This document shows, piece after piece, positions 3,482 through 4,832 of a stretch of DNA of 64,000 nt. Source of the DNA: Escherichia phage RB32; the sequence record NC_008515.1; one strand, given 5' to 3'. A program made the translations under genes and the position numbers. Every line of letters begins with the position of its first letter. Within the stretch, counting starts at the first letter, position 1. The notes under the pieces were generated by a model that saw nothing but the letters and a program-made list of their open reading frames with translations, was not told the origin of the DNA and searched no databases.

Positions 3482-3558
3482 TGGTCGAGACAGAAGGATT
3501 CTAACCTTCAACCTACGGATTAGAAGTCCGTTGCTCTATACAATTGAGCTATGCCCCG
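3482..3558 (-). tRNA. tRNA-Arg (anticodon TCT), CCA encoded
   Basis: Manual cloverleaf: acceptor CGGGGCA/TGTCTCG, D-arm GCTC..GAGC, anticodon stem ACGGA/TCCGT, loop CTTCTAA, T-arm GAAGG/CCTTC. Confidence 0.8.
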
Positions 3559-3561
3559 TAA

Positions 3562-4227
3562 TTAAAATTTCATTTTTCGACCTTTAAACCATCCTTCTGG
3601 AATTGGGTCAGTTTTCTTAATACGTTTAGAAACTTTTTCATCTAATGAATGAATCCACATCATACCAAATTGGGAATTCTTTTCGCCCTGTTGGTGTTTA
3701 TTTCTGGCGTGAGATTCTTTCATTTTATTAATAGTTTCAGGAGTATGATGCTTATTTAAAAATCTGCTATTATTTAAAAATTTTTCCCTGTATTCAGGAG
3801 TTGACCACAAGCGTTTAAATACATTTGAACCATGTTTACGATATTTTTCTTGAAGTAAAATATCATTTTTAAAACGTGACTTAAACGATTTAGCTCCTTT
3901 TAAACTAGCGTCTTTCTTCTGGTTTAGCATCCTAGGAATATTTATATGGTCCCATCCACCTTCACCACCAAGTTTTAAATTATACACATCTGGTCTATTT
4001 AAAAACTCTTCTGTGACAATATTTTTCTCGGCTTCAAGCATAGATTCTTTATCATCAAAATACTCTAATATTTCTTTAGAAAAATTTTCTATACCATATT
4101 TATCTTGGGCTCTTTTTAATAATTTACCAGAACCCATATATCCATCATCTAAATTTTCGGTAGAATGCACACCAATATAAATTTTATTATTAATTTTATT
4201 TGTTATTTTATAAGTGTAATGGAACAT
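3562..4227 (-). CDS. segB: GIY-YIG homing endonuclease SegB, 221 aa
   Basis: N-terminal YKITNKINNKIYIGVHS GIY-YIG motif; sits inside the tRNA cluster as in T4; same length as T4 SegB. Confidence 0.85.
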   Translation of the reverse strand: MFHYTYKITNKINNKIYIGVHSTENLDDGYMGSGKLLKRAQDKYGIENFSKEILEYFDDKESMLEAEKNIVTEEFLNRPDVYNLKLGGEGGWDHINIPRMLNQKKDASLKGAKSFKSRFKNDILLQEKYRKHGSNVFKRLWSTPEYREKFLNNSRFLNKHHTPETINKMKESHARNKHQQGEKNSQFGMMWIHSLDEKVSKRIKKTDPIPEGWFKGRKMKF

Positions 4228-4268
4228 AAATATCTCCTATTTCTAAGAGTATTTATGTTCCCAAAATA

Positions 4269-4340
4269 TGGCCCTGGGTGGAATTGAACCACCATCTGGC
4301 GATTATGAGTCGCTTGCTTGAACCTTCCAGCTACAGGGCC
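4269..4340 (-). tRNA. tRNA with anticodon CAT (T4 tRNA-Ile-like, AUA-reading after modification, or Met); no encoded CCA
   Basis: Acceptor GGCCCTG/CAGGGCC, anticodon loop CTCATAA, T-arm GGTGG TTCAATT CCACC. Confidence 0.75.
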
Positions 4341-4341
4341 T

Positions 4342-4417
4342 TGGTGCTGATTGACGGAATCGAACCGCCGACCTTCTCATTACAAGTGAGTTGCTCTACC
4401 TACTGAGCTAAATCAGC
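4342..4417 (-). tRNA. tRNA-Thr (anticodon TGT), CCA encoded
   Basis: Acceptor GCTGATT/AATCAGC, D-arm GCTCAGTAGGTAGAGC, anticodon loop CTTGTAA, T-loop TTCGATT. Confidence 0.85.
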
Positions 4418-4419
4418 AA

Positions 4420-4506
4420 CGGAGGCGATAGGATTTGAACCTATGAGTCGCCGGAGCGACTGCCGGTTTTCAAGACCGGTGCATTAAACCACTCTGCCAC
4501 GCCTCC
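4420..4506 (-). tRNA. tRNA-Ser (anticodon TGA), long variable arm
   Basis: Acceptor GGAGGCG/CGCCTCC, anticodon stem CCGGT/ACCGG with loop CTTGAAA, long variable arm, T-loop TTCAAAT. Confidence 0.85.
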
Positions 4507-4508
4507 AG

Positions 4509-4582
4509 TCTCCATACAAGGATTTGAACCTTGGACCTCCTGATCCCAAATCAGGCGCTCTACCAAACTGAGCTACACGGAG
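4509..4582 (-). tRNA. tRNA-Pro (anticodon TGG)
   Basis: D-arm GCTCAGTTTGGTAGAGC, anticodon stem CCTGA/TCAGG with loop TTTGGGA, T-arm CAAGG TTCAAAT CCTTG. Confidence 0.8.
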
Positions 4583-4592
4583 TAAATTAAAT

Positions 4593-4666
4593 TGGAGCGG
4601 ATAATGAGAATCGAACTCACATCATCAGATTGGAAGTCTGAGGTAATGCCATTATACGATATCCGC
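4593..4666 (-). tRNA. tRNA-Gly (anticodon TCC), CCA encoded
   Basis: Acceptor GCGGATA/TATCCGC, anticodon stem TCAGA/TCTGA with loop CTTCCAA, T-loop TTCGATT. Confidence 0.85.
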
Positions 4667-4671
4667 AAATT

Positions 4672-4758
4672 TGGTGCGAGAAGTGGGACTCGAACCCACA
4701 AGGAAATCATTCCGCAGCATTTTAAGTGCTGTGCCTTTACCAATTTGACCATTCTCGC
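4672..4758 (-). tRNA. tRNA-Leu (anticodon TAA), long variable arm, CCA encoded
   Basis: Acceptor GCGAGAA/TTCTCGC, anticodon stem CAGCA/TGCTG with loop CTTAAAA, T-arm GTGGG TTCGAGT CCCAC. Confidence 0.85.
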
Positions 4759-4759
4759 G

Positions 4760-4832
4760 CTGGGAATAAAGGACTCGAACCTTTGCATCTAGCAGTCAAA
4801 GTGCTATGCCTTACCAACTTGGCTAATTCCCA
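4760..4832 (-). tRNA. tRNA-Gln (anticodon TTG)
   Basis: Acceptor TGGGAAT/ATTCCCA, anticodon stem TAGCA/TGCTA with loop CTTTGAC, T-arm AAAGG TTCGAGT CCTTT. Confidence 0.85.

Follow-up and report, generated by a model that had tools for sequence, protein, structure and literature searches.

Within a 64-kb stretch of DNA from Escherichia phage RB32 (64,000 nt, hereafter the window), we examined a cluster of transfer RNA (tRNA) genes that encloses segB, the gene of a free-standing homing endonuclease. ARAGORN, run over the whole window, called exactly eight tRNA genes; every one of them is on the minus strand and falls within 3482–4832. The Rfam tRNA covariance model, which served as an independent check, scores all eight at 59–73 bits against a gathering score of 29, with E values from 1e-11 to 2e-15. 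Read along the minus strand, the order is Gln-UUG, Leu-UAA, Gly-UCC, Pro-UGG, Ser-UGA, Thr-UGU, a tRNA with the anticodon CAU, a 221-aa GIY-YIG open reading frame (ORF) and Arg-UCU, which is the order found in phage T4. The initial annotation had reached the same eight tRNAs, in T4 order, by folding the sequence by hand. ARAGORN and Rfam agree with it on every cloverleaf and every anticodon, rejecting none and reassigning none, and the set matches the T4 record.

The cluster begins with tRNA-Gln (UUG) at 4759–4832, which scores 66 bits with the Rfam model, followed by tRNA-Leu (UAA) at 4672–4758, which has a long variable arm; both are 100% identical to T4. The tRNA-Gly gene (UCC, 4593–4666) matches T4 at 73 of 74 positions, and tRNA-Pro (UGG, 4508–4582), again 100% identical to T4, abuts tRNA-Ser (UGA, 4419–4507), a second gene with a long variable arm and with a body identical to that of T4. 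Beyond a Ser–Thr spacer that shows a 5-nt indel relative to T4 lies tRNA-Thr (UGU, 4342–4417), with 73 of 76 positions identical. Over the tRNA body these six genes are 96–100% identical to their T4 counterparts. The remaining two, the CAU tRNA at 4269–4340 and tRNA-Arg (UCU) at 3482–3558, lie on either side of segB and carry other alleles. The terminal CCA is encoded in the Leu, Gly, Thr and Arg genes and missing from the Gln, Pro, Ser and CAU genes, a pattern that matches that of T4. Since these four genes do not encode CCA, their transcripts need 3′ trimming and CCA addition by the host, a scheme that corresponds to T4 tRNA biosynthesis. There is no tandem duplication within the cluster.

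The ORF at 3562–4227 on the minus strand encodes SegB, a GIY-YIG homing endonuclease of 221 residues. Its product, with the catalytic domain at the N terminus, matches the Pfam GIY-YIG family (PF01541) with an E value of 1.9e-6 and 28.5 bits against a cut-off of 22.6, and the PHROG "homing endonuclease" family with an E value of 2e-51. The gene sits between two intact tRNA genes and has its own Shine-Dalgarno sequence, an AGGAG read at 4234–4238 on the minus strand, 6 nt upstream of the ATG. It occupies the same locus as T4 segB and encodes a protein of equal length that aligns without gaps to T4 SegB, with 213 of 221 residues identical (96%); at the DNA level segB is 97% and the spacer between the CAU tRNA and segB 98% identical to T4. 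Identity to T6 SegB is 94% (208 of 221 residues), and alignments with the T4 and T6 proteins show that Tyr17 and Gly19, which are catalytic in T6 SegB, are conserved. Mutation of these residues inactivates the T6 enzyme (PMC13096335). The match to NUMOD3, a C-terminal DNA-binding module, stays below threshold (13.2 bits versus 20.4, E value 0.087), and a PDB sequence search returned no solved relative. Rfam found no group I intron or other intron RNA family in 2500–5500, and because no such RNA surrounds it we describe segB as free-standing. An intron-less GIY-YIG gene between the two tRNA subclusters, as originally proposed, is therefore borne out by the ORF itself, the Pfam and PHROG matches and the empty intron search.

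T4 SegB cuts within tRNA genes, with a preference for the tRNA-Asn gene of T2L, and recognizes about 27 bp that have the T-arm motif GGTTCRANTCC as their 5′ part (PMC2330249). This core motif occurs seven times on the coding strand of the cluster (in the Gln, Leu, Pro, Ser, Thr and CAU tRNA genes and in rnaC, described below) and once elsewhere in the 64 kb when both strands are counted.

Two stable RNA genes follow tRNA-Arg on the minus strand, both annotated in RB33 and T4. The first, rnaD (species 2), spans 3360–3480; its identity to T4 is 89%, and a single patch at 3398–3420 is variable. The second, rnaC (species 1), spans 3216–3354 and is 99% identical to T4. Both fold better than shuffled controls, with z-scores computed against those controls of −2.9 for rnaD and −4.6 for rnaC. 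The rnaC sequence, which contains GGTTCGAATCC, includes a tRNA-like T-arm hairpin, and this T-arm, CCGGGUUCGAAUCCCGG, also fits the SegB core motif. Neither RNA belongs to an Rfam family, the region yielding sub-threshold chance hits only. At 3142–3165, also on the minus strand, lies a strong intrinsic terminator-like hairpin, conserved in T4, whose 10 pairs include 7 G-C and which leads into a T run. Co-transcribed after tRNA-Arg, rnaD and rnaC belong to the tRNA unit, and the hairpin closes it. The extent first assigned to the unit, 3482–4832, does contain the tRNAs and segB; rnaD, rnaC and the terminator fall beyond it. A MotA-box-like TGCTT upstream of tRNA-Gln was considered as a promoter and dropped, being too near the 5′ end of the tRNA and not conserved in T4.

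By megablast, 952 phage records match the tRNA region, and window positions 3100–5000 are a 100% match over 1901 nt to Enterobacteria phage RB33 (KM607001.1). All 4901 nt of the annotated RB33 locus occur without a mismatch at 1600–6500 of the window, and 39001–64000 is likewise 100% RB33. The RB33 record, placed in Tequatrovirus (species Tequatrovirus RB32), annotates the eight tRNAs (RB33_t001–t008), segB (RB33_135), rnaD and rnaC. The position of the cluster is syntenic, with the internal-protein genes on one side and the e.x genes on the other, and with homologs of Trna.2-4/Ip and of e.8 at its flanks. Knowledge of the T4 tRNA cluster goes back to the early 1970s, and SegB was characterized in 2008. 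As the sequence is identical to an annotated record of a long-studied locus, our finding is a re-discovery: the locus is already in the public record as part of a textbook system, real but ordinary. Our own observations are that the sequence is identical to RB33, which genes it holds and in what order, of which types the tRNAs are, and to which family SegB belongs and which motifs it has. To the existing record we add a re-labeling of the CAU tRNA as Ile2 type, a mosaic of whole-gene alleles around segB and the prediction of a T4-like rather than T6-like response to defenses directed at tRNA-Tyr.

The CAU tRNA is labeled inconsistently in public records, the identical sequence being tRNA-Met in most and tRNA-Ile in a few. 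In E. coli tRNA-Ile2 (ileX/ileY), the CAU anticodon is converted to lysidine-AU by TilS; software labels a CAT tRNA "Met" because this modification is invisible to it. The gene in the window shows 100% identity with the T2 gene labeled "tRNA-Met(CAU)" and with the corresponding gene of RB3, and 64% with T4 tRNA-Ile. We compared it with the host tRNAs by the minimum-difference criterion of Silva et al. 2006, which asks whether a CAU tRNA is closer to Ile2 than to Met. Identity is 78% to E. coli tRNA-Ile2, 57% to elongator tRNA-Met (metT) and 49% to initiator tRNA-Met, and among 5426 complete E. coli genomes the best match is a gene annotated as tRNA-Ile in 5423. For T4 tRNA-Ile the same comparison gives 70% to Ile2 and 67% to Met; on these identities the CAU tRNA is more clearly Ile2-like than T4's own tRNA-Ile.

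The CAU tRNA shares with E. coli tRNA-Ile2 the anticodon, the entire anticodon stem-loop (GCGACUCAUAAUCGC), the C4-G69 and C5-G68 pairs and A73. It differs from Ile2 in its shorter variable loop (4 nt), in G13-A22 and A27-C43 mismatches and in the lack of an encoded CCA. The two acceptor-stem pairs, which were read from the sequence together with G1-C72, are replaced by U4-A69 and A5-U68 in elongator tRNA-Met, and E. coli TilS requires both C4-G69 and C5-G68 (PMC1635315). The anticodon stem, AGCGA/UCGCC, has no run of three G-C pairs at its bottom, and the G1-C72 pair means that the tRNA is not an initiator. The evidence says that this is a tRNA of the Ile2 (lysidine) type, predicted to be lysidinylated by TilS and to read AUA, rather than a tRNA-Met. 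Its initial equation with the AUA-reading tRNA-Ile of T4 is right about position and type, whereas the gene itself is the T2 allele and only 64% identical to that of T4. We see only a very slim chance that it is instead an elongator tRNA-Met that does not read AUA. That label is given by ARAGORN, by the RB33 record ("tRNA-Met (CAU)"), by the 2008 T2L paper and by most records with the identical sequence; the biochemically characterized tRNA-Ile of T4 is a distant match, and an Ile2 tRNA left unmodified is charged with Met (PMC1635315). Against it stand the greater identity to Ile2 than to either Met tRNA, the near-uniform tRNA-Ile annotation of the E. coli best matches, the TilS-required pairs, the shared anticodon stem-loop and the exclusion of an initiator by G1-C72. 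In addition, the window ORFs contain 15.3 AUA per 1000 codons, while AUG needs no supplementation, and besides the few records that already call the identical sequence tRNA-Ile, the RB51 record does so for its own CAU tRNA. Re-labeling the gene as Ile2 shifts its predicted decoding from AUG to AUA and corrects the RB33 record and most others with the same sequence. A total of 447 phage records carry the allele at 99% identity or more. Besides hundreds of T-even-like phages, some unrelated ones with genomes of about 140 kb have the tRNA in identical or 98.6% identical form (O157 typing phage 4, nomo, WalterGehring and some labeled Campylobacter phage), which suggests horizontal spread of the gene between phage families.

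On the other side of segB, tRNA-Arg is about 41–45% identical to T4 and 72% identical to T2, and it represents an allele distinct from both the T4/T6 and the T2 forms. Copies at least 95% identical occur in 186 records, and relatives of about 90% identity in Klebsiella phages. Its D-loop reads AAUUGUAUA and its T-loop UUAGAAU, giving U19-A56 where the closest relatives, from Klebsiella and Erwinia phages, keep the near-universal G19 and C56. Both partners of the G19-C56 tertiary pair have changed here in a compensated manner, and with A56 the SegB core motif loses its conserved C. The U19/A56 variant is common to RB51, JE01 and Mosigvirus APCEc01, with or without an adjacent segB; at position 3, RB33 has G (G3-U70) and these three have A. 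We considered whether U19-A56 confers self-immunity to SegB and rejected the idea in this form, because the allele does not track segB adjacency: it follows tRNA-Asn in RB51, and APCEc01 has no segB within 900 nt. The tRNA-Arg gene of T2, which also departs from the core motif, is still cut in vitro (PMC2330249).

Relative to T4, the mismatches of these two genes fall only inside the gene bodies, at 4271–4328 (CAU) and 3486–3556 (Arg), and the sequence on either side is T4-like. As the alignments place them, both are whole-gene allelic replacements, and with two foreign alleles in T4-like surroundings the cluster is a mosaic. The T4 form of the CAU gene is common to T6. The arrangement in the window is not a rare recombinant, a reading we rejected after finding the junction of the T2-type CAU gene with segB in 73 phage records and that of segB with the RB33-type Arg gene in 88. 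The locus illustrates SegB-associated shuffling of whole tRNA genes among T-even phages. As a separate observation, the RB51 record (FJ839693.1, 1–470) lists a gene for a "truncated SegB-like protein" upstream of tRNA-Ser, in the order Ser-Thr-Ile-Tyr-Asn-Arg, which is yet another architecture of the cluster. This gene is possibly what is left after decay of SegB, or a remnant of C-terminal truncations like those reported when T6 segB is amplified.

All eight tRNAs read codons that end in A, namely CAA, UUA, GGA, CCA, UCA, ACA, AUA and AGA. The GC content of the window is 35.8%. Counted in 56 long window ORFs, and set against approximate standard-table values for E. coli K-12 in brackets, the frequencies per 1000 codons are 24.6 for CAA (about 15), 31.2 for UUA (about 14), 24.9 for GGA (about 8), 16.6 for CCA (about 8), 20.1 for UCA (about 7), 20.6 for ACA (about 7), 15.3 for AUA (about 4–5) and 12.0 for AGA (about 2). 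These eight codons are common in the AT-rich genes of the phage but rare in E. coli, so the set supplements host isoacceptors that are in short supply; and because E. coli has an isoacceptor for each of the eight anticodons, it adds supply rather than new decoding capacity.

We conclude, with a probability of about 0.88, that the region is the tRNA operon of a T4-like coliphage (Tequatrovirus), best explained by codon supplementation together with selfish homing by SegB. Multi-gene precursors would be matured into tRNAs by host enzymes, and host TilS would convert the CAU tRNA to its lysidine form, so that AUA is read as Ile. By topping up host isoacceptors, the set would raise the rate of translation and the burst size, being helpful but not essential; according to the account of Wilson 1973 given in PMC4810235, T4 mutants without the tRNAs replicate, with a lower burst size and rate of protein synthesis. 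The segB gene would be a selfish passenger, its product cutting the T-arm region of tRNA genes in related phages that do not carry segB. Repair of the break would copy segB and neighboring tRNA genes into the cut genome, and the same breaks could seed tandem amplification of adjacent genes. The earlier proposal that segB promotes spread of the cluster has direct precedent in crosses of T4 with T2L, in which segB is inherited at 94–99.6% with loss of the T2L markers, a figure that deletion of segB lowers to 63% (PMC2330249). What is said here of homing, cleavage, amplification and burst size comes from the literature on T4, T2L and T6, and the RB33 copies would be expected to behave in the same way by analogy.

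Nothing in the sequence contradicts this conclusion, although several points do weigh against it. The E. coli codon values that underlie the comparison are approximate figures of standard K-12 tables rather than computed ones. The CAU and Arg genes are not the T4 alleles, so the biochemistry of T4 tRNA-Ile and tRNA-Arg is not automatically transferable to them. A sigma-70 promoter scan returned fewer candidates than shuffled sequence, none of them convincingly placed, and the promoter was not located. Codon supplementation accounts for a modest fitness effect only, and the main selective benefit of phage tRNAs is still debated (PMC10264068).

A different principal role for the cluster would be anti-defense, in which its tRNAs are nuclease-resistant replacements for destroyed host tRNAs and SegB provides rapid amplification of their copy number. 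The hypothesis has been set out in general form (PMC10264068), and it has precedents: the tRNA-Tyr of T5 counters retron-Eco7 (PMC11555353), PARIS is neutralized by a virally encoded tRNA (PMC11464382), and T6 tRNA-Tyr neutralizes Septu, a 2026 study having shown that breaks made by T6 SegB seed tandem amplification of tRNA-Tyr and segB and that this amplification is the route of escape (PMC13096335). The SegB encoded here is 94% identical to that enzyme, the cluster is rich in its core motifs, and the exchange of exactly two tRNA genes as whole cassettes could reflect diversifying selection. The tRNA species themselves speak against such a role, however, since ARAGORN finds in the 64-kb window no tRNA-Lys (the PrrC target), no tRNA-Tyr (the target of Septu and retron-Eco7) and no tRNA-Asn. 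T4, with the same eight specificities, is strongly restricted by Septu and does not escape (PMC13096335). PrrC cleaves tRNA-Lys, and T4-type phages counter it through repair by kinase and RNA ligase rather than by replacement (PMC10264068). Six tRNAs of the eight are 96–100% identical between RB33 and T4, which speaks against a continuing arms race over these six, and no E. coli nuclease is known to be directed at this particular set, colicin D (tRNA-Arg) being the only listed overlap. On balance we regard anti-defense as an improbable main role. The suggestion in the initial annotation that phage tRNA sets can replace nuclease-cleaved host tRNAs keeps its general precedent but gains no specific support from this set. 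Plating on PrrC hosts, proposed there as a check, would not probe the cluster, because the cluster has no tRNA-Lys and T4 repairs PrrC damage. As RB33 lacks tRNA-Tyr, like T4 and unlike T6, we would predict that it is sensitive to tRNA-Tyr cleavage of the Septu type, without escape by amplification.

The exchange of the CAU and Arg genes might itself be attributed to selection on these two tRNAs rather than to neutral, SegB-stimulated mosaicism among T-even phages, with a nuclease directed at tRNA-Arg or tRNA-Ile2, a modification-dependent defense or the tuning of SegB sensitivity as pressures that may have acted; we consider this highly unlikely. We hold it somewhat doubtful, though less so, that SegB is mainly a domesticated factor of genome plasticity, amplifying useful loci in cis and in trans, an idea complementary to codon supplementation with selfish homing. 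In T6, in addition to the nuclease-dependent amplification at the tRNA locus, anti-OLD and anti-ToxIN genes are amplified in trans and 83 cleavage sites lie across the genome, and segB homologs are significantly co-localized with tRNA genes (PMC13096335); the protein in the window retains the catalytic residues as well as its high identity to T6 SegB. Yet this behavior has been demonstrated in T6 only, the amplifications are unstable without selection, and the cluster in the window is free of tandem duplication, while classical homing, as in the T4 and T2L crosses, suffices for persistence of the gene (PMC2330249).

Apart from the operon itself, the region contains several ORFs of other kinds. 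On the minus strand, directly upstream of tRNA-Gln, lies an ORF of 171 aa at 4919–5434 (phrog_2290, unknown function); T2 has a coding sequence of the same length at this position and T4 has none, which we take as another sign of a T4/T2 mosaic region. The minus-strand ORF at 2618–3091 (157 aa; phrog_2280, unknown function; RB33_134) is absent from T4. It is bracketed by two 36-nt copies of the rnaC-terminator sequence, 92% identical and 555 bp apart, at 2578–2613 and 3133–3168, and has the look of a cassette that recombination at the terminator has inserted. Around its homolog, a "34 bp imperfect direct repeat" is already listed in the RB51 record. The N terminus of its product, MKSYAQFLNEA, resembles the capsid-targeting leader of T4 internal proteins. 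Leaders of the same type begin two further minus-strand ORFs, at 6392–6700 (MKTFKEFINEA, "Ip7" in the RB33 record) and 6762–7034 (MKTYQEFISEA), and together these ORFs on the flanks of the tRNA region appear to encode candidate internal proteins packaged in the capsid, as a polymorphic set.

The cluster can be placed among the known T-even systems by its gene content and alleles. In T2, the order is Gln-Leu-Gly-Pro-Ser, an ORF, and then CAU-Tyr-Asn-Arg; segB and tRNA-Thr are lacking, and the CAU gene is the same as the one described here. The T2 tRNA-Asn gene is the preferred SegB cleavage site (PMC2330249), whereas the present cluster has neither tRNA-Tyr nor tRNA-Asn. In T6, the order is Gln-Leu-Gly-Thr-CAU-Tyr-segB-Arg, with Pro and Ser absent and tRNA-Tyr directly upstream of segB. 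T6 resembles the window in that segB is followed by tRNA-Arg, and differs from it in carrying the T4-type CAU and Arg alleles. Phage tRNAs with anti-defense roles are clustered like those in the window and in T6 are linked to the same SegB, but the rescuing tRNA species are absent here. The T4 cluster has the same arrangement. T4 lacks the two ORFs that flank the cluster here (4919–5434 and 2618–3091) and differs at the two tRNA genes that abut segB, with identities of 64% for CAU and about 41–45% for Arg, but it shares all eight anticodons and their order, the position of segB, the downstream rnaD and rnaC genes and the terminator.

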